NCBI GenBank assembly: GCA_052258065.1
Contig: JBQQPY010000002.1
Coordinates: 593,432 to 657,431 of the forward strand
Length of the DNA stretch: 64,000 nt
DNA from: Sodalis sp. (in: enterobacteria)
GTDB lineage: Bacteria; Pseudomonadota; Gammaproteobacteria; Enterobacterales; Enterobacteriaceae
Reading direction: 5' to 3'
Made by a program: the position numbers and the translations under genes. The notes under the pieces are model-generated. The model did no database searches, was not told the DNA's origin, and saw only the letters and a program-made list of their open reading frames with translations. Positions 3,475-54,917 of the stretch are shown piece after piece. Each line of letters opens with the position of its first letter. Positions within the stretch are counted from its first letter, which is position 1.

Positions 3475-4461
3475 CTAGGTAGGCATGTAATCAGGAAGTG
3501 TCATAATGATCAGGATTCATAGTCAGAAAACTACAACATCTAAAATCAGAGCTTTTTCCCAAGCAAAAAACGAACCAGCATCTGCTTTTCTTCAGCGTTA
3601 TGGCATCTCTGAATTGAACGTTTCTCAATGGCAAAAACGAGATAGTGTTAAGCATTATAGCTATATCCCCATCATTTTTAGATGACACTGTAGCCTATTC
3701 AGAAAGCAGCGGCTGTTTTCTTCAGCAAGACGCTCTTCCTTCGACTGTACGATCTGTTGACGGTCGTACGTGAATCCTTAGCTCTGACTTAAATCGCTGT
3801 TTACGCAGGCATGCGCGGGGGTGTGGTGTAACATAAAGGAGAAAATACAAAATCAAAACACAAAGCGTTTAAAAATCATGCGCTTGCTTGCCTGTCTGTT
3901 GATACAAAACATATTTTACAAATGCTAAATAAAAATTCACGACGTTATATTTCGAACGACTGGATAGATTTTATGCGTTTTTACAAAGCAAAGACTGCAG
4001 GCTAATGCACGACCTTGCTTATATAATCTTAGTCAAGCATGTCTTATAGCTATTTATTAGCTACGTACAGACAGCAGCAAAAAATTTATAGCTCGTCTTT
4101 TAGACTGTAAAAATGCTGAGCTATCAGGAAAAATGAATTTGACTACTTATGTAAAAAGCTTCATATAGAAAATTGTCTTAGCCTACAGATACATCGACAA
4201 ACGAATGACAAACAAATCGTGTAGTCAAGTAATTTAAAAGGCTTATAGAAAATATACTATAAATTCATTATCACAATTCTGGTAAAGAGCTTAAGATTAC
4301 AATATACTGATACGTTTAGCTCTACAATCAGGAATTACCTCAATCAGTATTGAGTAGTAAAACTCCCTTGCAGTCTATAAAAAGCTGATACAAAATCAAA
4401 TATAAATTTTTGAAAAAACTATACTGCCTTTCTGGCTGCAATAAGTAATCAGCCTTATTTA
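3475..4461 (+). mobile_element. IS481-family-like element, near full length, heavily decayed
   Basis: Begins MIRIHSQKTTTSKIRAFSQAKNEPASAFLQRYGISELNVSQWQKRD (HTH), followed by relics of the ..EFLN.., ..FK.. and QTNG blocks. Right terminal repeat AATCAGCCTTATTTA at 4,447-4,461. Many stops. Confidence 0.65.
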
Positions 4462-4739
4462 TATGTAACAAATTTATTTAGTTTATTCTTTACCCTAATT
4501 TAAGTATGAAATGATGCCTGCACGCGCAGAAAACCGTTTTTCTTTAAAATTAGAAAAGATAAATAATAACTAATAAAAATATTAATTTACATTACATTAT
4601 TCGTATTTTCGCTTGGGAATGGACCCAAATGCGATTTTCCCGATTCGCAATACTTGAACGTAAGCGATGCCTAACGGATAATAGCTTTAATAATTGGGTA
4701 AACATGCCTTCAGGACAACGACGCTCCGGGAATAGAATA

Positions 4740-5145: not shown

Positions 5146-5227
5146 GCCCGAAATAGCTTATGCCGGCTCTAGCTGCGCGCTAATCCGCGTCAAGCACCTT
5201 TCGTCTATATCCGGTCCGTATTCTGCT

Positions 5228-6165
5228 GCGATCAAAATTATCGTAATCTATATAGGAATCAACTCCATCGCTTGAGCCTTTACATTCCACAACGAATCAA
5301 CAGTTCTTGCTAAAGCTTTTCTAAGCAGAAATTGCAGCCTGAAACACTATCTTGATAAGATTTAAATCCGTTAAATAGATAGAAAGATAAAGAATAATTG
5401 CATCTTTAGCCTCAATTGTTTCTTGTAAACCATTAACCTTATCAGCAACTAAATTATCTATTACCACGATATTTTCTAGTACGAGTTGAGGAAGAAGTAC
5501 CTGTTCTACATAAGCAACGAAAATGTGCCCGTTCATTGCTCCATCTAGTAATATAGCGAGACTTAATTCAGATAAACATATGCCAGCAGTGCGTCTAGTC
5601 CTTTCCCAGTCAGTATGCAGGATGCCTGCCTGGAGTTATTGACTTCATTTTTTATAGTCCTTTTCTGCGGTCTTTCAACCTGCTGATCTTTATTGTTATT
5701 GCTGTTTCATCGATGAAATAAGCTCTCTGGCAAAAATATGATATTTCTTCATGCCATGATTTTCGCGTATAAACTATATCTTCGCGGTCTTTTTTAGTGC
5801 TAAGCAAGGATTGTTTCAATACTGAAAGTACTTTTCAGAAATACTTGTATTCTAGACAAGGTTAGATAAGAGGAGTCATTAATAAGCGTAAGGATAAAAT
5901 CAAAATATACAAAAATTTTTAAGCCGAGATTTGAGTTTCCTCTACGCTTGGAGCTGTAACTTTCGATCTTGCAGAATTATTTACTTTAACAAGTCACAGT
6001 AGCAGAGCTTATTTAATATCTACCCACTGCTGCATGTGCAGAGCCACCCGCTTTAATTAATCCGATTATTGACAACCTTAAGTGCTCATTGTGAGAATCT
6101 ACGATTAAGACCTAAGAAAAAATTAGTCACAGTATATAGATGAATGGCTACTTAATAAAAATAGA
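5228..6165 (-). mobile_element. IS630-family type C, near full length, decayed
   Basis: ORF 5321..5536 reads MNGHIFVAYVEQVLLPQLVLENIVVIDNLVADKVNGLQETIEAKDAIILYLSIYLTDLNLI. This matches the DDE block F.AY.E..L.P.L..GD.VVMDNL.AHK...EAI...GA.LLYLPPYSPDLNPIE. The 5' HTH part lies at 5,950-6,160. Confidence 0.7.
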
Positions 6166-6239
6166 TAAAGACGCTCTCGCGTCTTAAAAATAGAGGTCAT
6201 AGCATCTGTGACTAGAGATTAAGAAATATACAAAATAGA

Positions 6240-6440
6240 GGAATGGAAAGTATATTATTACCCTTAGGTCAGAAGGGGGAAATGCCACTGAAAGTATTGG
6301 TCAGCAAGGGCTTACGTGCCGCACGGAAAGTGATGAATGAATTAATTTCTTGGATGATGCATTAATTTGAGATATAAAATGACCGAGTATCGAGGCGTTA
6401 GCTGAGATATTACAAATAGCTGCCCCAAGAACTAGCGGAA
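6240..6440 (+). mobile_element. IS630-family type B, 5' fragment
   Basis: ..TTATTACCCTTAGGTCAGAAGG.. and ..GTTAGCTGAGATATTACAAATAGC.. (..LAEILQ..) align to the copy at 17,230-17,410. Confidence 0.5.
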
Positions 6441-7310
6441 TAAGCGTTGCATTATATTCGCTCTTCAGGCAAGTAAAGCGTTATAGAATCTCTGAAATGA
6501 CTGTCTTTAAATGGAAAAGACGAGATGCTGTTTAAGAGCATAGCCCATATTCGCTATCTTTTGAAGATGATGCTATTGCCCGCTCAGAAAGCAGTTGCCG
6601 GTTCTCTGCAGAAGACGCCTTTCTTCTACCGAGCAATCTGTTAACTGTCGTATATGAATTCTTAAACCCCGCTATATCTTGATTTATTCTAGTTTGCTGT
6701 TTGCCCAAGCATGGATTAAGGAGCCGTGCGCAACTAAAGGAGAAAACTCTAACACTAAAGCACAAATCGTTTAAAAGCTATAAGCTTAGTTACCTGCATG
6801 TTGATGAAAACTATTTTCCATAAATGCTAAATGCAACCTAACGACGTTATCTTGCGTCAGTATAGATTGAGTAAATTGATGGATCTTATTCGTCTTTAGA
6901 AAGCAAGGAGCATAGCTGAGGTACGAAGTTTCTAGCGTAATCTTAGTTGAGCATATCCCATTGTTATTCATTGAAAACTTATAGACAAGGGCAAGTAATT
7001 TATAAATCGTTTTTTTGATCTGCGAACATACTCAGCTATCGGAAAACATGAATTCGACCGTTTATCTAAAAAAAATGAATATAGAACAACGTCTTAGACT
7101 ACTGATTCACCAATAAATTAATAGCATGGTCGAGCAATCTGGTCAAGAGCCTAAGAACATACTGCATTGATATGCATGACTCTACAGCTAGAAATTGCCC
7201 TAATAAGTATTAGGTAGTAAGGCTCTATTGCGTTTTATGAAATAAAGTAAAAAATTAATCTTAAATTATTCCATATTGCCATCTGGGATGTAGTGCATAA
7301 GCACCTAATA
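6440..7310 (+). mobile_element. IS481-family-like element, 5'-truncated, decayed
   Basis: Relics appear in order: ..ISEMTVFKWKRRD.., ..EFLNP.., ..FKSYKLSYLHVDE.., ..HEFD.., then right-end sequence ..AAATTATTCCATATTGCCATCTGGGATG. Confidence 0.6.
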
Positions 7311-7319
7311 CATCGCAAC

Positions 7320-7885
7320 GGGAGATGCTTAAATAAGATTGCGCCAGAAACATCGTGTCTTAGCCTCAGTCGAGACTTGATTCAGACGAATAAAAACCCA
7401 TTAATTCGCTCTATCTATACCCACGAAAAATAATGTCGTAAGGTTTCATTTGGCATTTTTTGGAAGATATGTTACATCAACATGCAGATAACTGGGCTCC
7501 ATAGCTTTTAAACGCTTTGTGCTTTGATTTTGGTGATTTCTCCTTTATGTCAACGCAATCGCCCTAGTCCATGCCTGCTATAAACAGCGATTCAGCTTAG
7601 ATTTAGATATGGCAGCTTTCAAGCATGCGCGTATGGTTGCTAAAAACTTGTCCACTTAGATAAGAAGCGATTTCCGCAGGAAACGATCACTGCTTTTGCA
7701 GCGGGCAACAGCGTCATCTGCAAACGATAGCGAATATAGCTATGGTTTTCAAAACTACCTCTTTTGCTATTTAGAAAATGTTAATTCAAAAACACCATAA
7801 CGCTTAGGCAAATACGCACTCGTTGCTTGGCATGAATAAGACTGTGCGTCAAGAGTCTGTATAATAATCTAGGATAAAACCACCC
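7320..7885 (-). mobile_element. IS481-family-like element, 5' half, decayed
   Basis: Reverse complement carries the ..FKAMEP..HVD.. block (AGCTTTTAAACGCTTTGTGC on the + strand) and the left end ..GAGTCTGTATAATAATCTAGGAT, ending ~10 bp from the adhesin stop. Confidence 0.6.
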
Positions 7886-7894
7886 AACAATACC

Positions 7895-8980
7895 CTACCA
7901 TGCAAGGTTACAGGATACGTTGTATATGAGATTGTTGCCACCGGAATAGGCTAGACCGACTTTAACAGTTGCTTTATCAGTAATACGATAACCTGAACCA
8001 AGCGCAATAGCTTGAGATGATTCATAGCCACCGATGCCTGCTGTAATGTTAACTTTACGGATAGAGTAGGGCTGGAAAAGACCGGTTAATGCAGCTGAAG
8101 CTGCTAGGCCACGCTCAACTTTAGTATTTATTTTAAATAATTGATACTGAACGCTGTTAAGACGCAACCTTTCTTTCTGCAGGAAAGAATCTAGGGACTT
8201 AACTGTGTTATGCACTCGATTTAGCTGAGCTATATTAGCGATATCATTATCGCCGAGACCCTCAGACACGCCGCTTATTACTCTGTTGCCTTGATTACCT
8301 GCAACTGAAAGAGTAGTTCCTTGAAGGGTCTTACCGATATGTATCGCACCATCATCGTCTTGATAGATATCTGTAAGCACATGAGCTGTATTATTTTGGA
8401 TTTTTTCAAACATTAATCGAGATTCTTTTTGATAATTTTCGGCGTAATCTGCTGACTCTATTAATCCTTTTTTGTTGGAATTTATTTCTTTTAGTGTATT
8501 ACTAGCTTCATCTTTTAACTCATTTATTTCTTTTTTATAGGCCTCTATGCTCTCTGATTGTAATTTTTCGGCTTGATTTTTAATGATACTCTTTGCCTGG
8601 AAAAGGTTCACAGCGTCAGTGTCTTCGGTAGCAGGAGCAACATTAGTCATTTGAGACACTTTCATTACATGATGCTTATCCAAAAGCTCATCTGGATAGA
8701 GACCACCAACAGAGAGCTCGATAATTTTATATCTAGCTAGCTTAAAAATCTGAAAACTTTTTGGTAATGCATTTATAGTTTTTTCTATATATTCACGACT
8801 ATATTTTCTATCTGACATTGCATAACTGCCTAACGCTGTTGAATTCACTACACTCGCATTAGCAGCATAACCTAATGCAGTAGTATCTCTTCTAGAAGCA
8901 ATTGCAGCATTACCTAATGTATAGGAAGATTTCGCTAGGCCATGTTCCACAATATCTTTCGCAATTGCTGCGTGAGGCAA
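7895..8980 (-). CDS. YadA-type trimeric autotransporter adhesin (short form). The true start is probably upstream of TTG 8980.
   Basis: Uninterrupted 361 codons. Two neck motifs: LSVGG..VSQMTNVAPATEDTDAVNLFQAK and LSVAGNQGNRVISGVSEGLGDNDIANIAQLN. A K/E/N-rich stalk follows. The C-terminal beta-anchor reads GLAASAALTGLFQPY..ITAGIGGYESSQAIALGSGYR..VKVGLAYSG..NVSCNLAW. The frame stays open to 9,208 and encodes a signal peptide there. Confidence 0.75.
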   Translation of the reverse strand: MPHAAIAKDIVEHGLAKSSYTLGNAAIASRRDTTALGYAANASVVNSTALGSYAMSDRKYSREYIEKTINALPKSFQIFKLARYKIIELSVGGLYPDELLDKHHVMKVSQMTNVAPATEDTDAVNLFQAKSIIKNQAEKLQSESIEAYKKEINELKDEASNTLKEINSNKKGLIESADYAENYQKESRLMFEKIQNNTAHVLTDIYQDDDGAIHIGKTLQGTTLSVAGNQGNRVISGVSEGLGDNDIANIAQLNRVHNTVKSLDSFLQKERLRLNSVQYQLFKINTKVERGLAASAALTGLFQPYSIRKVNITAGIGGYESSQAIALGSGYRITDKATVKVGLAYSGGNNLIYNVSCNLAW

Positions 8981-9176
8981 GATGATTAACGTGATAATTA
9001 TAGAATATAATAATCCTATTTTTTTAGAGGGAAAAGCAACTTTATTCAGAATATTTTTATATTTACTAATTTTCCTTGAAAAAACATTCTCATCTAAATA
9101 TATGCTATTTTTTGAACCATTTAATAATACACTATTTCTGTTAATTTTATCTATGCTGTTTATTCGTGTTTTAGTG

Positions 9177-9374
9177 TTAAGAATTTTTATATTTTTTACT
9201 ATTTTTAACTAAAGACACTTTAGATAAAAAATCAGAGGTTACTTTAATTTCCTTATTATATATAAAGTCTAGAGCTATATATATTCTCTTGAAAGAATAG
9301 GCTTTCAAGAAAAAGAATAAATCAGCAGAGGATAAAAAAGACAATAAGTTATGTCTTGATTCTATTCTGTTCAT
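9177..9374 (-). CDS. Hypothetical 65-aa ORF upstream of the adhesin gene
   Basis: ATG is preceded by AAGGA at -7. A 65-codon open frame is unusual in such AT-rich DNA. I recognise no homology. Its 3' end overlaps the open upstream extension of the adhesin frame. Confidence 0.25.
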   Translation of the reverse strand: MNRIESRHNLLSFLSSADLFFFLKAYSFKRIYIALDFIYNKEIKVTSDFLSKVSLVKNSKKYKNS

Positions 9375-9509
9375 AATGTTTCCTTTTTGTTAAAAATTTG
9401 TTTTATCGTTCATGCAAAAAAGAAAGTAATTTGCATAAGTTAAAATATTACTTGAATATGCATCGCATCTTGTGCAGTAAAGCTTGATCTGCAGTGAAAA
9501 TAAACAATT

Positions 9510-9917
9510 TTCAAGTAGATGAATACTCCTCTAAAGAGTGTCAAAATATAATACCTGGAACTTACCATACAATTCATGGCTAACATACTCCTTGTTCTCT
9601 AGCAGAATTTCAGTATGGATTTAACTAAAATTATGACTCAAGAGCACTAATACTGTGCTTCTTGATGGCAGTAGGGGAAGCACTTACAATACCATACAGC
9701 TTGCTAAGACAGGCCAAGAAAAGCGCTTAATTAAAAGTTATTCACTAATGCAAAAGAGAAGTAAAATAAATTATATTGACTGTTAATAGCGATTCTTTAT
9801 TGATAATAAAACTTTGTTTACTATAAAAATAAAATGGTTTTAAATAATTTAAATTATATTTTGTATTAATATTTCATAAACCACTATGAAGCCTCAGTAG
9901 GCAGTACTGATTAAGCC
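9510..9917 (+). mobile_element. IS1595-family-like 3' part
   Basis: Translation ..ECQNIIPGTYHTIHG*HTPCSLAEFQYGFN*NYDSRALIL.. carries the ..GTYH....YLAEFQYRFNRR.DLRAL signature. Confidence 0.6.
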
Positions 9918-10188
9918 GTCATTCTGAACCCAAATTAAGAAAAAACATAAAATCAGTGAAAATTAAAAACAAATAAAATCAATTAGTTATACTAAACTAA
10001 AGCTATTTAATTATAATTAAATGATGACTTCACTTTTTACTCAAAATTAGAATTATTATAGCTTAACTCAGGACCTTGCAGTTAATTAAAAAATTAACTA
10101 AAATATGATGAAATACATAAATATTAAGATCCTACTTTCTCATTTCACAAAATAGTCTAACCATCTACATCATTCTGCATCTAAATTA
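9918..10188 (+). mobile_element. Short IS1595 derivative (left end joined to right-end sequence) followed by a second left end
   Basis: GTCATTCTGAACC.. left terminus plus the AAAATTAAAAACAAATAAAATCA block (as at 53,44x, 37,26x, 53,0xx). Positions 10,070-10,165 match the right-end block at 50,060-50,140. A second left end, CATCATTCTGCATCTAAATTA, lies at 10,168-10,188. Confidence 0.5.
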
Positions 10189-11363
10189 GCCTTTAATCAC
10201 ATATTAAATTAAAGATACTTAAGCTTGATACGAGCATTTTCGGCACTAAAATACTAATCAATCTTAGCGTTTATCTGGTCGCGTCATGTTCGCCAAGCGA
10301 TAACTTTACTTTTTAATGTATTCATCTTGTCAAGGCAATAATTCAGGCATTGGCCGATTATTATATGAAACTCAATTTTTATCATGTTTAGCGAACTCCT
10401 ATGTTTAGCTGCATGAACAAATTGAAAATGCCCTAACACAGTCTTGTTCTGATCCAGCAAGAAACCTCGGCATAACAAACCTGTATTATGGATGTTGAGA
10501 TTACTCATGATAAGCACAATTTGGTGCACGTAAAGATATTACGTTGAGATTTCCTTAAGAAAGTAAGCCTAATCGCTCCTGGTTTTATGCTCAGTTACTT
10601 TGGTTAACCGATGCCCGTTAACGGTTTGCTGCCTATGAAGACATTTCACACTCTCAAGCGGTTTGTGTTTGCAGTCCTTGCAAGCATGTTTTCCAAACCT
10701 CAACAGCAGTGCTACGCGTGCCTGTCCAATCAATTGACGAGGGGCCTTGTCCATGCAAACCAGCACATATATCGGGTCATAAGACTGACGATACACGTCT
10801 AGCACATCACCCATATCTGGAATGAATTCAGTATTGGCTTCTGGAGATATAACCCAGCCGATCTACGTTGACGATTTTAGTTCTTTTTTGGCTTCTTCTT
10901 TATTACGTAAGATTGTTTTGAAGTATTAAATTTCTACAGCTTTATTAACAAGGAGTTACAAGGTTTACTTCCCTCGTTCCTCTGTCAGCTCCTGCAGATT
11001 AACGTAATTAAATCTGCTTCTACATCACGATCTACACTGCGGTCATGCATCTGTTTGCTCAGTTTACGGCTCAGGACTGCCTCAAGCCATTCTTTAAAAT
11101 GAATGCTTAACTCGCTCGATCTTGCAAGCATCTATTTTTAAAATCTTAGCTAACGGCTCGCCATTCAGTCACTTTACACATTCAATTTATGTATCGCAAT
11201 TCAATAACATCAATATATTCACTACGTTCTGTGCGATATTCTTATCCTTTCTGATTAACGCTTTCAATTGAATTTTTTCCTAAATAATGTGTTTTCATTT
11301 CTCTATTTTTTAATATTTCTTCAGCTCTGGCAACAGATACTGTAACTGCTACGTGTTAAGACA
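10189..11363 (-). mobile_element. IS630-family type B, full length (~1,175 bp) but stop-riddled
   Basis: ORFs 10569..10814 (..DVLDVYRQSYDPIYVLVCMDKAPRQLIGQ..KVTEHKTRSD) and 10284..10529 (..NLNIHNTG..) lie in order. HTH relic at 11.0-11.2 kb. Imperfect TIRs are CTTTAATCACATA (10,19x) and TCTTAACACGTA (reverse complement of 11,35x). Confidence 0.75.
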
Positions 11364-11421
11364 TGAGAGAAAGACATAAAATTAGTAAAAAACTAAAAAA
11401 ATAAAATTAATGAGTTATAAG

Positions 11422-12427
11422 TAAACAAGGCTGATTATTTGTTAAATACAAAAAATTAGCACTATTTTTAAAAAACTTGGGTTTTATTTTGTACCAATAT
11501 TTAATAGATCGCAATAGAGTGTTACTACCCAATACTGATAGAGGCAATGCCTGCTTGTAAGGCCAGACATATCGGTACAGATTGATCTAAAGCGCTTTAC
11601 CGGAATAGAAGTGGCGGCTTTGAAATACATTTTCTATACGCTGATTCAATTGTTCGATCAATACCGTTTGCTTGTGTCTACATTATCGGGGAGGCTAAGA
11701 TGGCAATCTATATCATATCAAAGCTCTGCACATAAGCAGTCAAATCAATTTTCTTAGATATCTGAGTATTTTACAGATATAAAAAAGATCTGTAAATTCT
11801 TCAGAATTGTTTCTAAGTGCCCGATAAAAGTGATAGAACACGTTCGACTAAGATCATGCAAGAAACGTCATGCACTAGTCTCCGTCTTCGCTTTTTAGAT
11901 AAAAATACCTATAAAAGGCTATCTCGTGAGGTTTCATTTAATATTTTTAGAAGATATTTCACATCAATATGCAGGCAACCAGGCTTATGGCTTTTAAGCA
12001 CCCTGTCTTTTTTAGAGTTTGCTGCTTCATATCAGGTAAACCTCGTATATGCAAACAACGAGTGAGGACAGATCAAGATACGGTGGGGTTATAACAGCTC
12101 GTCCAATGCAAGAAGAGCGTCTTCCACAGGGAAATAGCCACTGGTTCCTGATCGGGCGCAGCGTTGTCTGAAAGCGTTAAGTAATATCAGTAATCCTGAA
12201 CATTATCTCGTTTTGCCATTTAGAAACGGTCTATTTAGAGATGCGATAAACGCTTAGCCAAAGTAGATATTAGAGCGTTTCTTGCTTAAGGAGCCGCTCT
12301 GCTTTTATGGGTACGGAGTTTAATTATTATTATATTTTATCCTCAACCTTAGCTTTAAGGAGCTATTTTTCTATGAATAGGACCGTGCAAGAGAGTCTAT
12401 ATAATAATCTTGAATCAGGCTTATTTA
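11422..12427 (-). mobile_element. IS481-family-like element, full length (1,006 bp) with 15-bp TIRs, coding frame decayed
   Basis: TAAACAAGGCTGATT at 11,422-11,436 and AATCAGGCTTATTTA at 12,413-12,427. Internal relics of QTNG..ERFN, ..HVD.. and ..FKA.. blocks and the HTH N-terminus lie in order on the minus strand. Confidence 0.75.
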
Positions 12428-12510: not shown

Positions 12511-13791
12511 TTACAGTTTGGCAAAACTCTGTGCGGCGGCCTGCAGCGTGTAGCTAATCTCAGCGTCTCCGTGCGCTAGAGACATAAAGCCAGCTTCATA
12601 CGCCGACGGTGCAAGATAGATCCCTGCCGCCAGCATAGCATGGAAGAACCGCTTGAAGCGCTCCACATCGCACTTCTGTACGTCTCGGAAGCAGGTGACG
12701 CTCGGCAAATCGGTGAGAAACAGGCCGAACATGCCGCCGACTCGGTTAACCACTAGCGGCACGCCTGCTGACTTCGCCGCTGACAGCAGCCCCTGTGCCA
12801 GACGCTCTGTCTTCTGCGTTAACTGCTGATATACGCTAGGCCGGACGAGTTCGCGCAGGCAAGCGTAGCCGGCCGCCATGGCAACTGGATTGCCCGATAG
12901 GGTGCCTGCCTGATAGATGGGCCCCGTCGGCGCTAGCGCTGCCATCACCTTTCTGCAACCGCCAAAAGCGCCAACAGGCATGCCGCCGCCGATGATTTTG
13001 CCTAGACATGTTAAATCCGGTTTCACATCGTAATAAGCCTGCGCCCCGCCAAGAGCCACCCGGAAGCCGGTTATGACCTCATCCATAATTAACAGCGCAC
13101 CAAACTCATCGCAGAGCGCCCGCAGACCGGATAAAAATCCAGGCAGCGGCGGAACACAGTTCATATTCCCCGCCACCGGTTCGACGATAATGCAAGCGAT
13201 ATCGCGAGGATAAAGCGTGAACGCTTTCCGTACCGATTGCAAATCGTTATAACTGCAGCTGAGAGTATATTTTGTGTAATCGACCGGGATACCGGGAGAG
13301 CTGGACTGCCTCAGAGTGAGCACGCCAGATCCGGCCTTGACCAGCAGCCCATCCGCGTGACCGTGATAGCAACCCTCAAATTTAATCACTCTATCGCGGC
13401 CGGTATGGCCACGCGCGAGCCGGATGGCACTCATAGCAGCTTCAGTGCCCGAGTTGACCATGCGCACGCTCTCAATGGACGGCATGAGCTCGCTCAGTAA
13501 GCGCGCCATTTTTACTTCGATTTCAGTAGGTGCACCAAAGCTCAGGCCACGCTGTACAGCATCCAGTGCGGCCCGGCAGACGGCCGGATGGTTGTGACCC
13601 AGCACAATGGCGCCCCAAGAGCCAAGATAGTCAATATAGCTATTACCGTCGGCGTCGGTCATGCGAGCGCCGTCTGCGCTGGCGATAAAGAGTGGCGTGC
13701 CGCCAACGCCATTGAATGCGCGCACCGGTGAGTTTACCCCGCCAGGGATAAGCCGCCGCGCCTCGACGTACAAACTTGCGGAATGATTCAT
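12511..13791 (-). CDS. hemL: Glutamate-1-semialdehyde 2,1-aminomutase
   Basis: 426 aa, colinear with E. coli HemL. Shared blocks include ..[20 protein letters not shown].., ..[20 protein letters not shown].., ..[16 protein letters not shown].. and ..[14 protein letters not shown]... AGGAGC Shine-Dalgarno (SD) motif upstream of the ATG. Confidence 0.96.
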
Positions 13792-14539: not shown

Positions 14540-16651
<2,112 letters not shown>

Positions 16652-16704
16652 TATGGTAGTTTTTAACTAATTGAGGTTTTATTGTTTATTAATGTTTAAT
16701 AAAC

Positions 16705-17225
16705 TGCAATCGAGCTTTATTTCTATTTTATCCCGGATTATTATACAGACCCTCCTTGCACACACAGGCTTACCTATAGAAAGATGTCTGCTTATTAACG
16801 ATATGATTAATAGTAAAATACTATAATGATTATGCTTTATCATCAGGCAACTGCAACACATCAAATCAGAGGGGCTTTTCAGGCAAACAACGAGCCAGTA
16901 TCTACTTTAGCTAAGCGTTATAATATCTCTATACTTAACGTTTCCAAATAGCAAAATAGTATTGAAGATCATAAACATATTCTTTATTTCTTCAGATAAC
17001 GCTGTCACTCGCTCAGTAGACAGTAACCGTTTCCTTGCGGAAAACTCCTTTTCCCAATAGACGCTTAGCTGATGGTTGTACATGAATTCTTGAACCCCTG
17101 TATCTTGATCTGGCCCGAATCGCTGTTTATGCAGGCATAGATTGAATGCGTTTGCATGGTGTTAAGGAGAGAGCCCCAACACTAAAACACAAAGCATTTA
17201 AATCTATGAGTCTAGCGCCTTAACA
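16705..17225 (+). mobile_element. IS481-family-like element, 5' half, cut by an IS630-B insertion
   Basis: Left-end block CCCGGATTATTATACAGAC.., then the HTH relic, ..EFLNP.. and ..FKSMSLAP. The IS630-B left-end sequence starts at 17,226. Confidence 0.6.
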
Positions 17226-18420
17226 CGTTATATTATTACCCTTACATCGAAAGAAAGAACGCAGATGAAAGCGTTAGTCAGAAAGTGTAAGCATATTGTA
17301 AAGAACTTTATTAATATATTAATTTATAAATTACAATATATTAATTTGATACGTAAAGCGATCGACCGATAGAAGGTTAGCTGAGATTTTACAAATAGGC
17401 GCCTGCAATATCAATCGGGTTAATTATTGTTTTGTCAAAGAAGAATTTAAGATGGTCATAAGTCGTAACCGCGCAAACTAATATAATAACTACATTGTGA
17501 ATAGCAATACCGTAGCGCATTTAATTGCGGCTAGGCTGCAGCGAGATGCCAGAGAAATACGGATGGTGAACCTTGCAGCTGCCTATCGATAAAGCTCTAG
17601 AACTGCAATAAGTTAAAATGATCTCGCGTACAACAGGTAGGCACACACTAAAAAAACGAACTGAAGCCGTGGACGAAAAGCAGCGGGGTTATAACTGCTA
17701 AAACCTAATAACGAATTCGTTACAGCCATGCTGAATGCGCTGGATATCTATCGTCGGTTTTATGGCCCGATCTATCCGGTTATTTTACAGTATACTATCG
17801 CTCATTAATTGATTAGATACACACGCGCGACATTGTCGTTGAAGCCTGGAAAACCTACTTTATAGGACTATAAATACAAACGCTGGGTGCCTGCAATGTC
17901 TTCATGGCCAGTAAGCTGTTAGTGCGTGCTCGTCTGAGCAAGTCATAGAACGCAGATCGATTATGCTTACTTTATCAAAGAATAAAGGAACATATTATCA
18001 TTGGAAGAAAGAAATCAATCGTTAGTTAGTAAGAGCAAGCATGCGCACAGAAAGTTGTAGATACATTAATCTTATTGAATTTTAATAAATTAATCATATG
18101 TCTAAAGTGCCTAGCGGCAAGACGTTAACCGAAATTTTATAAATGTCGACCCCATTCTCGGATTCGCCTGGCTATGCATCCAGCGATGCATCCGTCATTT
18201 CTATGGACGAAACCTTTAATTCATTGATTGGACATATACGCATAGCGCTACCATTGAGGCCCGGAAAACCTGCTTGGGAGGACTATAAATAACAAAAGGC
18301 TATAGTATGTAATGTCTTAAGATCTAGTGCGCCATTGTCGGGTCCGTCACTCAACTCAAGTGACTGAGCACAAAAAGCATAGAAAGAGCACAGAAACAGG
18401 ATTGATTAGACTTACTTTAT
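17226..18420 (+). mobile_element. IS630-family type B, two successive decayed partial copies
   Basis: ..LAEILQIGA.., ..NEFVTAMLNALDIYRRFYGPIYPV.., then a second ..LTEIL*M.. and ..SLIGHIRIALPLRPGKP..KVTEHKK.. series. Confidence 0.55.
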
Positions 18421-18429
18421 TACCTGACC

Positions 18430-19270
18430 ACAAACCTTGCTCAGCTATACGGGCTGTATCGGAGGGGGTAAAGCAAAGATAAATAAGAATTGCATCTTTA
18501 GCGTTAATAACTGCTTATACCATCAACTGTATCAGTAAATAAATTATCCACTATCAGGATATTCCATGCCAGGAGTTAAGGAGTCAGCATCTTTTCTACA
18601 TAATCAAGGAAGGCATATTATCCGGTCATTGCTCTATCGAGCAACATAGTTGCACTTAATCTAGATGGATGTAGACTAATGGTAAGTTTTATCATTTCCT
18701 CGTCGGCTCGTCGGATATCAATCCGGCATTATTGACTTTGTCTTCTAAAGCTCTTTAACTTACTAATATTTTTCGTTGTTGCTGTTTCGTCAATGAAAAT
18801 GCCCCTCTCTTGTAAAAACAAGACATTTCTTTAGACTATAATTTTCGTAAATGAATTACATCGTTGCGCTCTTACTGATTGGCATTTACCGTATTTTTAA
18901 CCGTTATCATGTGGCGGCGAAAATCGCGATAGAATTGTAAGACTCGCTTGAATTCTAAAAGTACTTTTCAGGGAGATCTGTATTTTAAATAAGGCTTAAG
19001 CACAAGATTCATCAATAAGCGCCAAGATAAAATTAGAATACGTATCAATTTTTAATCCACGATTCGGGTTTTCTCTAGGTCTAGGATGTAACTTCTGGTC
19101 TGACGGAATTGCTTACTCTAACACACCGAAACAGAAGAGTTTATTTTATATCTATGTGCCGCTTCGTCTTTAGATTTACCTGACTCAATCAATTTGATTA
19201 TTTACTATCTTCATTCCTCACTTTAATAAAATTCTATTTAGACCTTAGAAAAATTAGCCATAGCATAAGG
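18430..19270 (-). mobile_element. IS630-family type C, decayed, with its 5' terminus inside the cyoE 3' end
   Basis: Colinear with the copies at 5,228-6,165 and 63,082-63,975. The terminal sequence ..GACCTTAGAAAAATTAGCCATAGCATA supplies the last 9 codons and the stop of the cyoE reading frame. Confidence 0.7.
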
Positions 19271-20125
19271 CACCATAACGTCGACCGATATCATGACACT
19301 CAGCGAGGCAATAGCGACGATCGAAAAGATAAACAGCTTACGCACCCAGATCTTATCATTATTGGCAGACCTGTAACCCTGTAACGCCATGCCTAACCAC
19401 CAAGCGCTGACCGAGATGGCAACAATTAGGTATCTGCAGCCAGCATAACCGCCCAGCGTTAACATCAGCGTCGCCACCATAAACGCGATAATATACAAAG
19501 TAATATGGTGTTTAGTGATTAAAATGCCGCGTTTTATCGGCAAGACCGGAATTGATGCTGCCTGATAATCCTAGAAACGAAAGATGGCGATCGCATAAGA
19601 ATGTGGCATTTGCCATAGGCTAAAAATCAGCAGCAAAATTAACGCACCAGTATCGAATCAGTCGCTAACGGCACAGTATCCAATCACCGGCGGCGCGGCT
19701 CTGGATAGACTGCCAATAAGCGCACCGTAAACAGATTTTCGCTTCATATACAGGCTGTATAGGCCAACGTAGATAATAAATCCTATTATGGCCAGCCACA
19801 TGGCTAGCGGATTGGGCGCCAGATCCAGTATCGCAAAACCAGCAATACCCAGCACTGTAGCGTAAACCAGACTAACTTTTACAGAAATTAATCCTTTCAC
19901 CAAGACCCTGTTTTTGGTCCTTTCCATTTTCCAATCAATGTCACGATCAATATAGTTATTAAAAACGCAACCCGAGGCAACTACTAGGGATACACCGATC
20001 AGCATAGCGAGAAACAGGGAATAGTCGATCTGACCCTTTGCAGCTAATAAAAATCCCCTAATGACAAAAATGAGATTACCACCAATAATTCCTTGTTTTG
20101 TTACTTGTAGATATTGTTTAATCAT
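19238..20125 (-). pseudogene. cyoE: Heme O synthase (protoheme IX farnesyltransferase), inactivated
   Basis: ORFs 19658..20125 and 19238..19543 are in the same frame and colinear with E. coli CyoE. They are separated by in-frame TGA (19660..19658) and TAG (19573..19571). The sequence between them still reads [28 protein letters not shown]. The C-terminus is replaced by an IS end. Confidence 0.9.
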
Positions 20126-20140
20126 TACCTGTGCGCTCTA

Positions 20141-20473
20141 TTAGTAGCCCATCAAATTGTAGTTGAGGTGCCATATAATCCACAAGGAGCCGACTACCAA
20201 GATTGCGATGATCATCATCGTAAATATAAAGGCTATCAGGCTCCACTGCTGCTCAGACGACGTATTGAGGTGCAGGAAATATACTAGATGCAGGATAATC
20301 TGCACCACGGCGCAAATGACCAGCACCGCTATCAGTGTAGTTTCGGTGGCAGAGCCCTGCATCACGATGCCGAACGGAATTACCGTTAGGATAATAGAAA
20401 GAATAAAACCAATCAAATAGGACTTATGGCTACCGTGGCTGGTACTGGTATGCCCTGCGGATGCATGACTCAT
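20141..20473 (-). CDS. cyoD: Cytochrome bo3 ubiquinol oxidase subunit IV
   Basis: 110 aa from ATG 20473 ([44 protein letters not shown]), colinear with E. coli CyoD. TGATG overlap with the cyoC stop. The longer ORF 20141..20710 is an out-of-frame run through cyoC. Confidence 0.9.
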   Translation of the reverse strand: MSHASAGHTSTSHGSHKSYLIGFILSIILTVIPFGIVMQGSATETTLIAVLVICAVVQIILHLVYFLHLNTSSEQQWSLIAFIFTMMIIAILVVGSLWIIWHLNYNLMGY

Positions 20474-21087
20474 CAAAGTGCCCCCATTAAATACACCACG
20501 GTAAAGACGCAAATCCAAACCAGGTCTAGAAAGTGCCAGAATAGGCTCAAGCACTGCAAACGGATTTGGTTGACTGGAGTCAGACCACGGCAGGAGACCT
20601 GAACCATCATTACCAGAATCCAGATAAGGCCGGAGATGATATGCAGACCGTGGGTGCCCACTAGCGTAAAAAATCCGGAAAGGAAAGCGCTGTGATCCGG
20701 GCCATAGCATTCCGCAATCAAGTAATGAAATTCGTACAGCTCCATGCAGATAAAACCAAAACCGAACAGAAAGGTTAGACCTAGCCAGACGTTGACCCGG
20801 CTCTTATCGCCGCGGTACATGGCTAAAATCGCCATACCGTAGGTGATACTGCTAAACAGCAGGAAGAAGGTTTCAATCAGAACACACGGCAGCTCGAAAA
20901 TCTCTTTACCCGTGGGTCCGCCCGCCACGCTATTTCTCAGAACGGCATAGGTGGCAAATAGGGTTGCGAATAGAATACAGTCGCTCATCAGGTAGAGCCA
21001 GAAGCCAAATATTTTGTTAGCTCCTGCATCGTGGTATCCATGCTCGGCATGGTCTGTATCATAATTAAATAGAATCTTAGTTGACAT
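20473..21087 (-). CDS. cyoC: Cytochrome bo3 ubiquinol oxidase subunit III
   Basis: 204 aa, the same length as E. coli CyoC. Shared blocks include ..[23 protein letters not shown].. and ..[24 protein letters not shown]... Confidence 0.93.
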
Positions 21088-23070
21088 TCTTCACGCCTGA
21101 TTCACTGATTTGATCAAAATACCGATTCTCAATACGTTCGATTTCTTCTACCGGCACGTAATAATCCACGTTTTCATTGAAGCTCTGGATTATCCAGGTC
21201 GCGATCATGCCGACAAACCCGACGATCGCCAGCCACCAGATATGCCAGATTAAGGAAAACCCAAATACCAAGCTGAAGGCAGCGATAATCACGCCGGCGC
21301 AGGTGTTTTTCGGCATATGGATAGACTCATAGGCCAGTGGCTTTTTATAAGCGGTGCCTTCCTCTTTCATCTGCCAGAATGCATCAAGCTGATTGTTTAC
21401 TTCCGGTAAGACGGCGAAGTTATAGAATGGCGGGGGGAGGAAGTCGCCCATTCTAGAGTACGGCCGCCCCACGGATCACCCGTCATGTCGCGGTTTTTTT
21501 CGCGATCGCGCACGCTGACCAGAATCTGGATAACTTGGCACAGGATACCCAGCGCGATAAGCGCAGCACCAGCGGCGGCCACCATCAGCAGCGGGTGGAA
21601 AACGGGATCGATCTGCTGGCTCAAACGGCGGGTCATCCCCATAAAGCCTAGTACATACAGAGGTATAAACGCGATATAGAATCCGATAATCCAGAACCAG
21701 AAAGCGCGCCTCCCCCAGGTTTCGTTCAGGGTATAGCCGAAGGCTTTCGGAAACCAGTAGTTCATTGCCGCAAAGCAGCCAAATACCACGCCACCGATAA
21801 TGACGTTATGGAAATGGGCAATTAAAAATAGGCTGTTGTGCAGCACGAAGTCGGCGCCCGGCACCGCCAGCAGCACGCCGGTCATCCCGCCGATAGAGAA
21901 GGTGATGATGAAGCCTACGGTCCACAGCATCGCCGAGTTAAACACTACGCGCCCCTGATAAAGAGTGAACAGCCAGTTGAAAATCTTTACTCCGGTCGGG
22001 ATAGCGATAATCATGGTCATTATGCCGAAGAAAGCGTTAACGTTGGCGCCGGACCCCATAGTGAAGAAGTGATGCAGCCAAACGCAGAACGACAGCACGG
22101 TAATGACAATGGTCGCCCATACCAGAGAGGTGTAGCCGAACAAGCGTTTTTTCGAAAAAGCTGCCACCACTTCCGAAAAAACACCAAACACCGGCAATAC
22201 TAGGATATACACTTCCGGGTGACCCCAAGCCCAGAACAGGTTCACGTACATCATCACATTGCCACCCATATCATTCGTAAAGAAATGGGTACCCAAATAG
22301 CGATCCAGGGTCAAGAGCGCGATAGTCACGGTTAAAATCGGAAACGCTGCAATGATCAGCACGTTAGTACACAGCGCAGTCCAGGTGAAGACAGGCATTT
22401 TCATCATCGGCATGCCAGGGGCGCGCATGCGAAGAATGGTGGTCAAGAAATTAATTCCGGTCAGGGTGGTACCGATACCGGCTATTTGAATACTCCAGAT
22501 CCAGTAATCCACTCCAACGCCAGGGCTGTACTCTTTTCCTGCTAGCGGAGGATAAGCTACCCAGCCGGTTTGGGCAAATTCACCCACGCAGAGGGACAGG
22601 TTGATAAGGATTGCGCCGACGACGAAGAGCCAGAAACTCAGGGAGTTCAGGAAAGGAAAGGCAACGTCACGCGCGCCGATTTGCAGCGGTACCGCTAGGT
22701 TCATCAGGCCAACCACAAAGGGCATCGCCATAAAGATTATCATGATGACGCCGTGGACGGTCACCACCTGATCATAATGATGAGGCGGCAGAAAGCCTGC
22801 TTCGCTCGCCGAGGCCAGCGCCTGCTGCAAGCGCATCATTATGGCATCGGTGAAGCCGCGCAGCAACATCACAAACGCCATGATTATGTACATAATACCG
22901 ATTTTCTTATGATCTACCGAGGTGAGCCATTCTTGCCAAAGATATTGCCATTTAGCAAAGTAGCTAATTGCGGCTACTAGCGCTAGACTAATTACAATGA
23001 TAGCGGCAACAGTTATCATAATAATCGGTTCATGGTACGGCACTGAATCAAACGTTAATTTTCCAAACAT
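21077..23070 (-). pseudogene. cyoB: Cytochrome bo3 ubiquinol oxidase subunit I with a single frameshift
   Basis: ORF 21397..23070 (557 aa) and ORF 21077..21472 together are colinear with E. coli CyoB. The frames switch at ..LEWATSSP|PPFYNF.., inside a C6 run on the coding strand (G6 at 21,432-21,437 on +). C7 would restore the frame. Confidence 0.9.
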
Positions 23071-23075
23071 CGCTA

Positions 23076-24017
23076 TTATTCCTCGGCACCCTCGTAAAAG
23101 TGTTTATCTATATCCATATCCATGTCTCTCCTTTCGTCCTTGGAGGTGGCAATTCTCTTGCCCTTTCCCATAAATTTTCCGATCACATCTTGGTACAGAT
23201 TAGATTTAACTCTAGAGAAATACTTGACCGGATGATTCTCGCTCGGCACTGCCAGCTGCTCGTAAGCATCCATGGTGCTAAGTATATTAGATGATGCCTT
23301 AACTTTCTGAACCCACCCCTCGAAGCTTGCTTCATCCGGCGTGGCAACGGCGGTGAATTTCATACCGGAAAAACCCTGCCCACTGAAGTTCGATGAAATT
23401 CCTTTATAACTTCCCGGCTCGTTGGCGATGAGATGCAAAGTGGCATTCATTCCGGCCATTGCGTAAACCTGGCCGCCTAACTGGGGAATAAATAAGGAAT
23501 TCATCACCGAATTGGAGGTAATCTTAAACTCGACCGGAACGTTGGCCGGGAAAGCGATTTCGTTCACTGTGGCGATACCTTGCTCTGGATAAATGAATAG
23601 CCATTTCCAGTCCATCGCAATAACTTGAATCATCAGAGGTTTAATGTCAGACGCAATCGGCTTGCTCGGATCCAGCGCCTGGGTCGACTTCCACGTCAGG
23701 GTTGCCAGGAAGAGGATGATAAGGATAGGAATCGTCCAAACTACCAGTTCTACCTTTCTAGAATGAGACCAGTTGGGGTTATACGTCGCCTTAGTATTTG
23801 ACGCGCGATATTTGATAGCGAAGACGAATGCCATGATGATAGCGGGTATAACGACAATTAACATCAGCCCGAGAGCAGTCAGTATTAATGAACGTTGCTC
23901 TAGTCCTATCTGTCCCTTTGGATTCATTAAGACCATATCTCTGCAGCCACTAACCAACGCGACAACGTTAAACAGTGAAAGAGTCCCTAAACTTTTATTA
24001 TATTTCCTAAATTTCAT
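23076..24017 (-). CDS. cyoA: Cytochrome bo3 ubiquinol oxidase subunit II (lipoprotein)
   Basis: 313 aa, colinear with E. coli CyoA. Lipobox ..ALVSGC. Shared block ..[19 protein letters not shown].. ..NSVMNS.FIPQLG.Q.YAMAGM... Confidence 0.93.
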
Positions 24018-24175
24018 CTAACGACCTCAATTAAATTTTCTTTAATGTCGTTTCTTGTATCGAGGCATTTTACGGAAAGGTTACAGCACTGTAAACATGC
24101 TTAAGATTACCCAATTATACATTTTGCTCAGCCATATTACTTTCATCCATTCTCGCTTATATTACGCTGCGACAA

Positions 24176-24890
24176 AAAATTATCACAATTTTATAGAAAA
24201 TTAACTCAACAGCTTGAATAATCTCATTCTACAATCATTCAACGGTTCTTTCTGAAGCTTTCTGAGCAGTCATGTGTTCTTGGGAAACGCCATATTGATA
24301 GGATTTAAATACGCTGAACAAGTCGGACGATAAAGAATAAATGCATCTCTAACCTAATAGCTTCTTGTACATTATAGACTTTATAAGTAGCCAAATTATC
24401 TATTATCACGACATTTCCTGATATAAGTTCAGAAACAAGTAACTGCTCTAAATAAATAAGAAAAATATTTCGTTTCATTTCTATATCAAGTAGCATCGTT
24501 GCACTTAATCCGGAGAGAAGTATGCACGCAGTAAGTATCATTGTTTTTAGTGAGCGCCTAGAACATCCGTCCCGCATTGTTGACCTCGCCTGCCGCAACC
24601 CTTTCTTACTCATATTTGTCGTGATTGTCGTTTTATTAATGAAACAAACTTTTCTAGTGAAAATAGAACATTTCTTAAGACCATGATTTGCGCCTATGAA
24701 TTGCATCATCAGGTTCTTGTTCAGCATCATATAAGGTCTTTTTTGACCGTTAGTATATGGCAAAAACGCGGTAAACTGGCAAGGCTTTTTAACTGTTACA
24801 AGTACTTTTCAGAGAGGCCTGTATTTCAAACAAGGCTAGATTACAAGACTTATCAATGAACTTCAGTCTAAAAAGGCGAGACGCCGACCC
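24176..24890 (-). mobile_element. IS630-family type C, 5'-truncated, decayed
   Basis: ORF 24305..24763 contains ..IFLIYLEQLLVSELISGNVVIIDNLATYKVYNVQEAI.. (DDE block). Colinear with the other type-C copies. Confidence 0.65.
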
Positions 24891-24904
24891 AGAGAAAATT
24901 CGAG

Positions 24905-25100
24905 ATGCTGGAAGCCTGGCTCATTAGGGATACTGATAATGGCTATATAGCGATTAGCAATCATGTGGTGAATTACGCATCTAAATACAGGTACAGCTCA
25001 ACGATGGACGTACATTCAACGCTAAGCTTATCGGTAAAGATACGCAATCCGATATTGCACTAGTGTATCTGATTCACTCCAAAAATCTGACCGAAATAAA
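24905..25100 (+). pseudogene. DegP/DegQ-type (HtrA family) serine protease fragment
   Basis: Read across two frames: ..IRDTDNGYIAISNHVVNYASK / VQLNDGRTFNAKLIGKDTQSDIALVYLIHSKNLTEIK. Compare DegQ ..KGYVLTNNHVI....I.IQLNDGREFDAKLIGSDDQSDIALLQIQNP..LT.I. The fragment holds the catalytic His and Asp region only. Confidence 0.6.
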
Positions 25101-26010
25101 AAATTGTAAGAATATTTCTTGTAAATTAATTCAATAGATTAAGCGATCGCATTCTACAGAAAATCAACGGTTCTTGCTGCAGCTTTTCTAAGCACTGATT
25201 GCATTTTGGAAAATTCGGTCTCGATAGGATTTAAATCCGGTGAATAAGGCGAAAAATAAAAAAGTATTATATCTTTAGCCTCAATAGGCTTCTCATGAAA
25301 AATTAACTTTATGAGTAGAAAAATTCTATATTATTACCACATTCCTTAGTGCAGTTTAAGGGACAAGTGCTTGCTCTACATAAACAAGGCAACTGTGTGC
25401 ATTCATTGCTCTATCAAATAGCATAGTTGCACTTAATCTAGATAGATCTATTCCAGCAGAGAGCATCGTTGTTTTTCAGTGAGTGTATAGCAATCAGCCC
25501 TACATCGTTAATCTCGTCTACTACGGGTCTTTGATCCGCTGATCTTTATCGTTATTGCCGTTTTATCAAAGATAAAACGCTTCTCTGATAAAAATATGAT
25601 ATTTTTAGGCCATAATTTACAGCAATGCACTACATCGTTGCACCCTTGTTCAGTGGCATCTACGATCTTTTTAACCGTTATCATGTGATTTTGAAAGAGC
25701 CCGATAGAATAGCAAAGCTAGTTTAAATACTGAAAGTGCTTTTCAGGAAGGCCTGTATTTCAGAAAAAGCTAGATCAGAATATTCATCAAGAAGCCTCAA
25801 AAAAATCAGAATACGCATCAATTTTTGAACCGCGATTCAGGTTTCCTCTAAGTTTAGAGCTGTAATTTCCGATTTCACGAAATCGATTACTCCAACGAGC
25901 TGCAGCAGAAGAGCCTATTGATATGTATCCTTCTCTGCATGTACAGAGCTCTACGCTTCAATCAATCCGATGATTTGCGATCTTAAGTCTTTTCCTGGAT
26001 GGGGTATGAT
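25098..26010 (-). mobile_element. IS630-family type C, near full length, decayed
   Basis: Colinear with 5,228-6,165, including the DDE block relic at 25.3 kb and the HTH part at 25.85-26.0 kb. Confidence 0.65.
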
Positions 26011-37255: not shown

Positions 37256-37261
37256 TTTACT

Positions 37262-37405
37262 ACCGTTATTCCGCATCTAAATCAGAAATAAACAGAAGAA
37301 TTAATGAAAATTAAAAATAAATAAAATAAATAAGTTATGATCAATTCATGCTAGTTACTTATTTAATTACAATTATTAATTTATAATTATAGGCATATTC
37401 CGCAT
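37262..37405 (+). repeat. IS1595-type left-end sequence bounded by a direct repeat ATTCCGCATCT
   Basis: ..TTATTCCGCATCTAAATCAG..GAAAATTAAAAATAAATAAAATAAATAAGTTATG..ATATTCCGCATCT. Same block as 9,918-10,050, 53,440-53,540 and 53,010-53,092 (reverse complement). Confidence 0.5.
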
Positions 37406-54625: not shown

Positions 54626-54917
54626 TATATTTATTCCTAGTTTAGTTTTGGAATGACAGTTAGATTTTACACTGAGTTAAAGCATGGATAACGAAAAGTG
54701 CTGACCAGCCCGTAATTAAAAGCATACAAGTATCGACAGTAAGGCAAAGCAAAGAAAATGCAGTAATCAGTTTAAAAAAGATCATCTTTGATTTAAATTA
54801 GATTAAAGCATGCATTTACCCCGCTAGTCTCAGTATATCCACCTGACGGTGCAGTAAAGTTATGGTAGTATAGAAAAAATTTCTACCAGAACGCCAGAGG
54901 TATATCTGAACAAACCA

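Follow-up and report, generated by a model that had tools for sequence, protein, structure and literature searches.

A YadA-type trimeric autotransporter gene with an unusually long predicted leader, probably silenced by a single frameshift, in a Sodalis genome

The minus-strand open reading frame (ORF) at 7895..8980 in a 64,000-nucleotide (nt) stretch of Sodalis sp. DNA (contig JBQQPY010000002.1; "the window" below means this whole stretch) raises the question of how a surface adhesin could be made from a frame whose only canonical start codon lies inside its own signal peptide. The ORF is intact and has 361 codons with a TTG start in the ORF listing, and the public annotation of the locus, MGP4123323.1 (P0001), is an identical 361-amino-acid (aa) protein starting at TTG 8980, its source being a 1,744,785-bp contig of a Sodalis sp. 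metagenome-assembled genome (MAG). The original prediction, made from the letters alone, described an uninterrupted YadA-type trimeric autotransporter with a Sec-type signal segment encoded upstream of that start, and explained it either by a non-canonical start or by very recent loss of the start codon; its account of the sequence was correct in every detail checked, and its interpretation is partly supported. We propose that the locus forms one gene, 9374..7895(-), whose start lies ~400 nt upstream of the annotated one and which belongs to a small family of short trimeric autotransporter adhesins in the Sodalis clade, and that the copy in the window is, with slightly better than even confidence, a very recent single-lesion frameshift pseudogene mis-annotated as a 361-aa protein from TTG 8980.

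By sequence, the product of 7895..8980(-) is a YadA-type trimeric autotransporter. Its membrane anchor scores 46.6 bits against Pfam YadA_anchor (PF03895; cutoff 22.7, 3.7e-12), the YadA anchor structure 2LME in PDB aligns to residues 273-361 with an E value of 8.8e-28, and the NCBIfam YadA model (NF033478) covers residues 185-437, from neck to anchor and C-terminus, at E=1.5e-32. The protein ends in ...NVSCNLAW, with an aromatic last residue. In the AlphaFold2 (AF2) model of P0003 (MGP4123651.1, 521 aa), a collinear paralog encoded in the same genome and 49% identical, residues 404-459 form a helix and residues 470-519 four strands (pLDDT 60-68). The two necks and four-strand anchor read earlier by eye find their counterparts in two readable neck-like motifs, QMTNVAPATEDTDAVNLFQ and RVISGVSEGLGDNDIANIAQLN, and in the anchor score, while the stalk falls just short (YadA_stalk PF05662, 27.1 bits against a cutoff of 28.4), as does the head (YadA_head PF05658, 20.1 bits against 25). 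Identity as a YadA ortholog proper was rejected on the full-length test, in which NF033478 gives 113.2 bits against a curated cutoff of 750.

The frame of 7895..8980(-), here called frame D, stays open for 76 codons further upstream, to TAG 9211-9209, and the codon listing contains no ATG, GTG or TTG among them, in agreement with the earlier reading. These codons encode ...ILNKVAFPSKKIGLLYSIIITLIILPHAAIA|KD, in which two lysines, a hydrophobic core and an AxA motif can be recognized, and the other signals that had been pointed out are likewise present on the minus strand (AAGGA 9077-9073, ATT 9070, ATT 9052 and CTG 9049). In composition-preserving shuffles an extension of this length is stop-free with P=0.00015. 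Further upstream lies a second ORF of 65 codons, 9374..9177(-), in what we call frame U, with the translation MNRIESRHNLLSFLSSADLFFFLKAYSFKRIYIALDFIYNKEIKVTSDFLSKVSLVKNSKKYKNS followed by a stop codon; it is stop-free by chance with P=0.002, and the remaining two frames of the leader region hold 7-12 stops each. Even in DNA of 20-30% GC, chance would not be expected to leave frames of such length open.

That these two frames are the separated halves of one leader is evident from the relatives. Besides P0003, the family includes a second paralog in the same genome, P0004 (MGP4123866.1, 365 aa, 42% identity); P0006 (529 aa, 37% identity) from the secondary endosymbiont of Ctenarytaina eucalypti (CP003546, locus L001); P0002 (412 aa) on the Logan contig L003 (ERR13953749); and P0005 (486 aa) at L084; more distant anchor relatives occur in Sodalis praecaptivus and Arsenophonus and among E. 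coli YadA-like proteins. A tblastn search with P0003 aligns its residues 88-521 to 9196..7898 in frame D and its residues 15-88 to 9413..9192 in frame U, the segments switching frame at 9192-9196. Frame D is frame U +1, and one ORF is restored by a change of -1 nt or +2 nt; deletion of one A yields an uninterrupted ORF of 492 codons that is collinear with P0003, P0006 and P0002 and would read ...LVKNSKNIKILNTK... across the junction. The switch site has the sequence AGT-AAAAAA-T-ATA at 9200-9188, in a wider low-complexity tract AAAAAATATAAAAA, and the same site reads AAA AAA T ATA AAA in the window and AAA AAA ATA AAA in L001. Past the lesion both frames behave as out-of-frame sequence: frame U runs for 4 codons to a stop beyond the indel, and in the other direction a stop interrupts frame D 4 codons before it. 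A phmmer search of the frame-U ORF against 1.84e9 representative proteins returned only residues 28-88 of P0003 (4.3e-6) and the upstream ORF of L003, P0033 (2.8e-4). The resulting gene model has the following features, in which h- and c-region are the hydrophobic and C-terminal regions of the signal peptide.

9381..9385, minus strand: Shine-Dalgarno (SD) sequence AAGGA, 6 nt before ATG 9374, read from the sequence; L001, L003 and L084 show the same AAAGGAA(N6)ATG context in alignment
9177..9374, minus strand: frame U, with the conserved ATG 9374 and the first ~60 leader codons (MNRIESRHNLLSFLSS...LVKNSKK), then out of frame into TAA 9179-9177 (ORF listing, tblastn, phmmer, shuffles)
9191..9197, minus strand: A6 run (9197-9192) followed by T 9191, where the frame shifts (tblastn frame switch, A deletion, comparison with L001)
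9020..9208, minus strand: frame D, second half of the leader, basic and K/N/I-rich, holding ATT 9052, CTG 9049 and KK 9025-9020 (aligns with P0002, P0003 and P0006)
8960..9019, minus strand: predicted signal-peptide h-region and c-region (IGLLYSIIITLIIL-PHAAIA; hydropathy, invariant LP.A.A)
8978..8980, minus strand: annotated start TTG, inside the h-region and without an SD (ORF listing, public annotation)
8213..8959, minus strand: passenger (Pfam, NCBIfam YadA alignment, motif coordinates, match to PDB 3WPO at 3.6e-4)
8813..8923, minus strand: head-like repeats (motif coordinates)
8597..8653, minus strand: neck 1 (motif coordinates)
8375..8596, minus strand: coiled coil (motif coordinates)
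8213..8344, minus strand: neck 2 and the preceding beta segment (motif coordinates)
7898..8212, minus strand: last coiled coil and YadA-type membrane anchor, ending in W (PF03895, 2LME, AF2 model of P0003)
8078..8212 and 7898..8077, minus strand: anchor helix and four beta strands, respectively (aligned to the AF2 model of P0003)
7895..7897, minus strand: stop codon TAG (sequence)

The start codons of the family show what the window copy has lost. An ATG was to be looked for in related loci, and one was found, though some 139 codons upstream of the cleavage site and not at the hydrophobic core: the SD AAGGA 9385-9381 and ATG 9374 are conserved, and together with ~100 nt of upstream DNA they align among the window, L001, L003 and L084. 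In P0003 and P0006 no Met adjoins the hydrophobic core and the ORFs extend ~115 codons further upstream; P0003 has the fused ATG and an in-frame internal ATG 42 codons before the cleavage site, and P0006 the fused ATG and, where the window has ATT 9052, an in-frame GTG. L084 (P0005) uses the homologous SD and ATG, 36 residues before the h-region, and P0004 has an ATG directly at a plain 23-aa signal peptide. L003, the closest relative, carries a deletion of ~28 codons and a frame break of its own, opposite in sign (-1) to that of the window and in a different place; at 150-320 of this contig, a 55-aa upstream ORF ends in TAG-TGA overlapping the GTG of the adhesin, with a strong GGAGGA 9 nt upstream, a predicted termination-reinitiation layout that replaces the fused leader and gives a 55-aa signal sequence. 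Signal sequences of ~55 aa occur only in L003 and L084. The window codon homologous to the L003 GTG is TTA (9124-9122), and AGAAAT stands there in place of GGAGGA. All the relatives examined have at least one canonical start in frame with the h-region, and the window copy alone has none. The proposed recent loss of a start codon is not supported by this comparison, in that no relative has a Met by the core and the family ATG is intact at 9374; what has been lost is the continuity of the frame.

The non-coding DNA before the SD and ATG can also be aligned, at 9400-9470 in the window, 3900-3990 in L001, 60-140 in L003 and 1-100 in L084, with shared blocks including TTTTATTT and TTTA..TG; it may be a promoter or regulatory region common to the adhesin family. 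A promoter and terminator scan gave matches no commoner than in shuffled sequence and no terminator, and an Rfam scan of 7500-10300 gave no RNA family.

In the window copy the 437 remaining codons of frame D offer no canonical start before the hydrophobic core, and the conserved ATG 9374 stands in a different frame. A 1-nt indel relative to P0003 and P0006 is combined with the lack of a canonical alternative start, as in a putative recent pseudogene. A ribosome starting at ATG 9374 would lose the frame at the A6/T tract 9197-9191, some 60 codons into the leader, and end at TAA 9179-9177; the exported adhesin is most likely no longer made, and the window copy has most likely lost its function. 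Its C-terminal 165 aa carry six unique substitutions at otherwise invariant columns (0-3 in each of eleven relatives), and its last strand has changed from NASFNLEW to NVSCNLAW.

In the relatives, translation would proceed from the SD and ATG through a basic, lineage-specific leader of ~115 residues into a normal h-region and AxA site. Once exported by Sec and cleaved, the protein in its mature form (KDIVEHG... in the window copy; KDIVEHGLAK) would trimerise, and the four-strand anchor would insert through the β-barrel assembly machinery (BAM), displaying a short head-neck-stalk adhesin. The cut by signal peptidase I is predicted from the AxA rule between 8960 and 8959 (AIA|KD); LP.A.A is invariant across five family members, and the only strong hydrophobic segment has its hydropathy maximum (2.49, Kyte-Doolittle, 15-residue window) at leader residue 119.

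By its sequence the locus belongs to a known kind, the YadA-type trimeric autotransporters, and within it to a small Sodalis-clade variant whose predicted orphan leader before the signal peptide is unusually long. The pre-sequence amounts to 138, 139 and 140 aa in the repaired window copy, P0003 and P0006, respectively, of which ~115 residues precede the signal peptide; this part is basic (net charge +13 to +19), and a basic charge before the hydrophobic segment fits a cytoplasmic N-terminal region (n-region). The L001 leader is stop-free over 140 codons (P<5e-5; 0 of 20,000 shuffles), and the out-of-frame readings of the leader regions of the window and L001 contain 7-17 stops each. We infer from the open frames and their conservation that the leader is translated in the relatives, and in our reading the constraint on it is probably for the most part to keep the frame free of stops, the peptide basic and the length fixed. 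Its amino-acid identity, 52% to L003 and 39% to L001, equals that of the passenger (46% and 39%) though not that of the anchor (66% and 62%). P0003, whose leader contains IEFKYNLLYFLSFSGL... and DLKNSAHLGEV..., and P0006 share with the window copy the same architecture from SD and ATG to the final W, with a collinear leader of the same length, and differ in being single ORFs where the window copy is split. A Pfam search of the leader gave no match, and a profile search with the leader alignment gave nothing at E<=0.01 in 5.8e9 proteins. Of the 84 loci examined, only L001, L002 and L003 carry the leader. The feature (a conserved SD and ATG followed by ~115 stop-free basic codons) is found at four loci in three symbiont genomes; in the contig scan the matches listed were mostly unrelated trimeric autotransporters, none of them with the leader.

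Two known systems invite comparison. The YadA protein of Yersinia and the short Eib and YadA-like proteins of Enterobacterales (type Vc) share with the window family the anchor, the aromatic residue at the C-terminus and a small size of ~350 mature residues, and they resemble it in the readable neck motifs, the predicted coiled-coil stalk and the head-like repeats. Their signal peptides are ~25 aa long and begin at the Met, whereas the family described here has pre-sequences of 138-140 aa, a window copy without an in-frame start, and head and stalk scores below the Pfam cutoffs. The extended signal peptide region (ESPR, PF13018) of UpaG/EhaG, Hia and EmaA is likewise an extra N-terminal segment before a classical signal peptide of n-, h- and c-regions, and the leader resembles it in starting MN(K/R)I..., followed by a weakly hydrophobic stretch, LLSFLSSADLFFFL, and then a charged one. 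However, PF13018 gave nothing at E<=10 against four leader N-termini (3.2e-18 for a control ESPR). Signal sequences with an ESPR measure 50-60 aa, the length up to which autotransporter signal sequences have been described (bioRxiv 10.64898/2026.01.22.700529; PMC2805444), and the ESPR accompanies very long passengers, whereas the leader makes a pre-sequence of ~139 aa on a very short passenger. ESPR membership was rejected on both grounds, the missing PF13018 match and a length of 138-140 aa against ~50-60 aa. At more than twice the length of known autotransporter signal sequences, the leader is the one unusual feature of the locus; if translated, it would give this family a longer pre-sequence than is known from any other type V protein, and how Sec handles such a leader, or whether the leader has a role of its own, would become a testable question. 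The window copy is of modest interest, and the leader is the part that deserves experiment.

A bolder combination, which we regard as rather unlikely when taken as one joint reading, is that the Sodalis-allied clade truly makes pre-sequences of 138-140 residues, that the leader is either a giant n-region or a cleaved, export-controlling peptide of the cytoplasm or inner membrane, and that the window holds the OFF allele of a switch operated by 1-nt indels in the A tract of the leader.

Several observations weigh against the two parts of our interpretation, a translated leader and a dead window copy. The leader was compared by counts of differences at each codon position, and not by the ratio of nonsynonymous to synonymous rates (dN/dS), because synonymous sites are saturated, the nearest DNA relatives being only 37-52% identical at the protein level. 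These counts are near even in the leader (52/55/62 and 30/32/38) and strongly skewed in the anchor (21/12/60); the guanine-plus-cytosine (GC) content of the leader is equal at all three positions (0.19-0.26), a pattern that suggests a spacer more than a domain with a fold. Its pLDDT in the AF2 model of P0003, from a 10-sequence alignment, is 22-36 and uninformative. As for the window copy, the 437 codons of frame D are still wholly open in DNA of 33-38% GC, so that inactivation must be very recent or the frame still in use; ATT 9052, homologous to the in-frame GTG of L001, could support weak initiation; and the excess of unique substitutions could reflect fast symbiont evolution, P0004, P0006 and P0007 being similar on a looser count. 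An independent assembly with the same upstream ORF was looked for, and none is on record.

The last point bears on whether the indel is real. An extra base in AAAAAATATAAAAA might be a long-read artefact, a consensus error in the A/T-rich tract 9197-9191, and the real gene an intact 492-codon ORF from ATG 9374. The gene is intact but for a single lesion, which falls within low-complexity, A/T-rich sequence, and a MAG with a single 1.74-Mb contig implies long reads; moreover, cyoB is likewise broken at a homopolymer, C6 21437-21432. Against an artefact stands the quality of the other genes: hemL, kdsA, lon, clpX, tig, pcnB, pta and gyrA are full length against NCBIfam models, and in 17 kb of such intact housekeeping ORFs none of 69 homopolymers of at least 5 nt, 19 of them of at least 6 nt, is frameshifted. 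In addition, compared with L001 the extra base is a T between A6 and ATA, which is not a change in run length, and cyoE, in the same operon as cyoB, has two nonsense substitutions, so that the operon is truly decaying. An error is for these reasons unlikely, and the indel is probably real because the genome loses genes by single lesions and the 69 homopolymers are unshifted.

The cyoABCDE operon (19658-24017(-)) itself presents the following picture. The cyoA gene looks full length; the cyoB ORF 21397..23070 matches residues 1-547 of 663 and continues in another frame at 21077..21472, the break falling after the C6 run, where C7 would keep ...WATSSPPPFYNF in frame; and cyoE (from 20125 downwards) has two in-frame stops, between VSD and FDTG and between FRF and DYQ, which are substitutions and therefore cannot be homopolymer errors. 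The operon is freshly decaying, single-lesion gene death is ongoing in the genome, and the adhesin fits the pattern.

Alternatively, the frameshift may be real and expression low or switchable, through phase-variable slippage in the A6 run, a +1 ribosomal slip on AAA-AAA, or re-initiation after 9179-9177; we find this doubtful. Frame D is entirely open, the A6 tract would permit a +1 slip with perfect re-pairing of tRNA-Lys, and L003 demonstrates that an upstream-ORF stop overlapping the adhesin start is workable in the family. Host-adapted bacteria commonly turn adhesins ON and OFF by indels in homopolymers of 5' coding sequence. Here, however, the A6 run is the one simple repeat found in the leader of the window copy, and it is short for a contingency tract. 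Re-initiation would have no ATG, GTG or TTG to use. For +1 frameshifting no stimulator is present, there being no A-site stop or rare codon, no SD 3 nt upstream and no site of the CUU-U type, and the break in L003 is of opposite sign (-1) and elsewhere, so that no recoding site is conserved. A prfB-like programmed +1 frameshift was rejected for the same reasons, as its required elements are absent at 9200-9177 and the relatives are unshifted or oppositely shifted elsewhere.

Slippage during transcription offers a parallel, since the slippage-rescued genes of Buchnera and Blochmannia also combine an AT-rich symbiont genome with an A-tract frameshift in an otherwise intact gene. In the documented cases, RNA polymerase slippage makes mainly +1 insertions, in long runs, and its frequency grows exponentially as runs lengthen to 9-11 nt (PMC5574713). 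The window, in contrast, has a run of A6 and requires a change of -1 or +2, and rescue by transcriptional slippage was rejected on the wrong sign and the short run.

A quite improbable reading is translation from a non-canonical start, ATT 9052 or CTG 9049, which would yield a normal 31-aa signal peptide, (M)LNKVAFPSKKIGLLYSIIITLIILPHAAIA, and make the upstream frame irrelevant. The idea had been raised from the sequence, and some observations favour it: ATT-CTG-AAT-AAA is identical in the window and L003, P0003 has Ile at the homologous position, and the homologous codon of L001 is an in-frame GTG opening a textbook 31-aa signal peptide. However, no SD lies within 5-13 nt, AAGGA 9077-9073 being 20 nt from ATT 9052 and no nearer to CTG 9049, which is too far, and ATT 9070 lying 2 nt after it, which is too close. 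AUU and CUG starts reach at most a few percent of AUG in Enterobacterales. Such a start would also leave unexplained the conserved SD and ATG 9374 and the ~110 stop-free upstream codons at four loci. Continued expression by any of these routes taken together, whether slippage, ribosomal slip, non-canonical start or DNA switching, is possible though not likely.

That the gene works as annotated, from TTG 8980 and without export, is barely credible despite the public record MGP4123323.1, for the product would begin in the h-region (MPHAAIA...) and, with neither an n-region nor an h-region, would not be exportable, as had been pointed out; the TTG has no SD; a YadA anchor needs the outer membrane to work; and homology extends upstream of the TTG in all relatives.

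The 361-aa protein of the public annotation cannot work as an adhesin, and the correct description of the locus is a frameshifted gene of 492 codons. Counting it as a retained host-interaction factor would be wrong. It also gives a dated picture of how a gene dies in a Sodalis-type genome, a single lesion standing in an otherwise intact sequence. P0003, with its full 139-aa leader in frame, and P0004, with its plain 23-aa signal peptide, are annotated as intact outside the window. If an adhesin has been retained in this decaying genome for interaction with the host, as had been suggested, these two apparently intact paralogs are better candidates for it than the window copy.

The composition of the gene departs from that of the core genes. 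GC at third codon positions (GC3) is 0.28 in the adhesin gene, and GC is 0.23 in its leader, against a GC3 of 0.52-0.63 in core genes; the adhesin is more AT-rich than even the pseudogene-rich remainder of the window (GC 0.40). This low GC, which had been read as compatible with foreign origin, is confirmed, but the family as a whole shows it; anchor relatives occur in Sodalis praecaptivus, and the L001 member has a GC3 of 0.285 against 0.40-0.455 for rpsO and pnp. Recent horizontal acquisition as the cause was rejected, the members in other genomes being AT-rich too; because the AT-richness is shared by relatives in several Sodalis-allied genomes, it is a long-standing family trait and any transfer is old.

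The flanks of the locus, taken earlier for an IS481 end and an IS1595 relic, are indeed old repeat relics reaching to ~7880 and 64-74% identical to other copies in the window, but neither family name was verified: BLAST against plasmids gave no match, and a DDE_3 fragment at 5321-5536 was all that Pfam searches of the ORFs and of the six translated frames brought up. A 25-nt block, 7855-7879, recurs at two other relic edges and agrees with an element end near 7880. The DDE_3 (IS630-type) piece is the only recognisable transposase fragment near the locus. The insertion sequence (IS)-like relics at 5219-7828 and 10213-12409 match others at 3541-4487, 14605-19267, 24160-25988, 36130-38189, 42177-43056 and 54128-58960, and their identity of 64-74% points to a former proliferation of IS elements whose remains are being worn away. 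The hemL gene (12511-13791) has a GC of 0.58, and non-housekeeping DNA averages 0.40, a compositional split as expected if AT-biased decay acts on the unconstrained DNA of a Sodalis genome formerly of ~55% GC.

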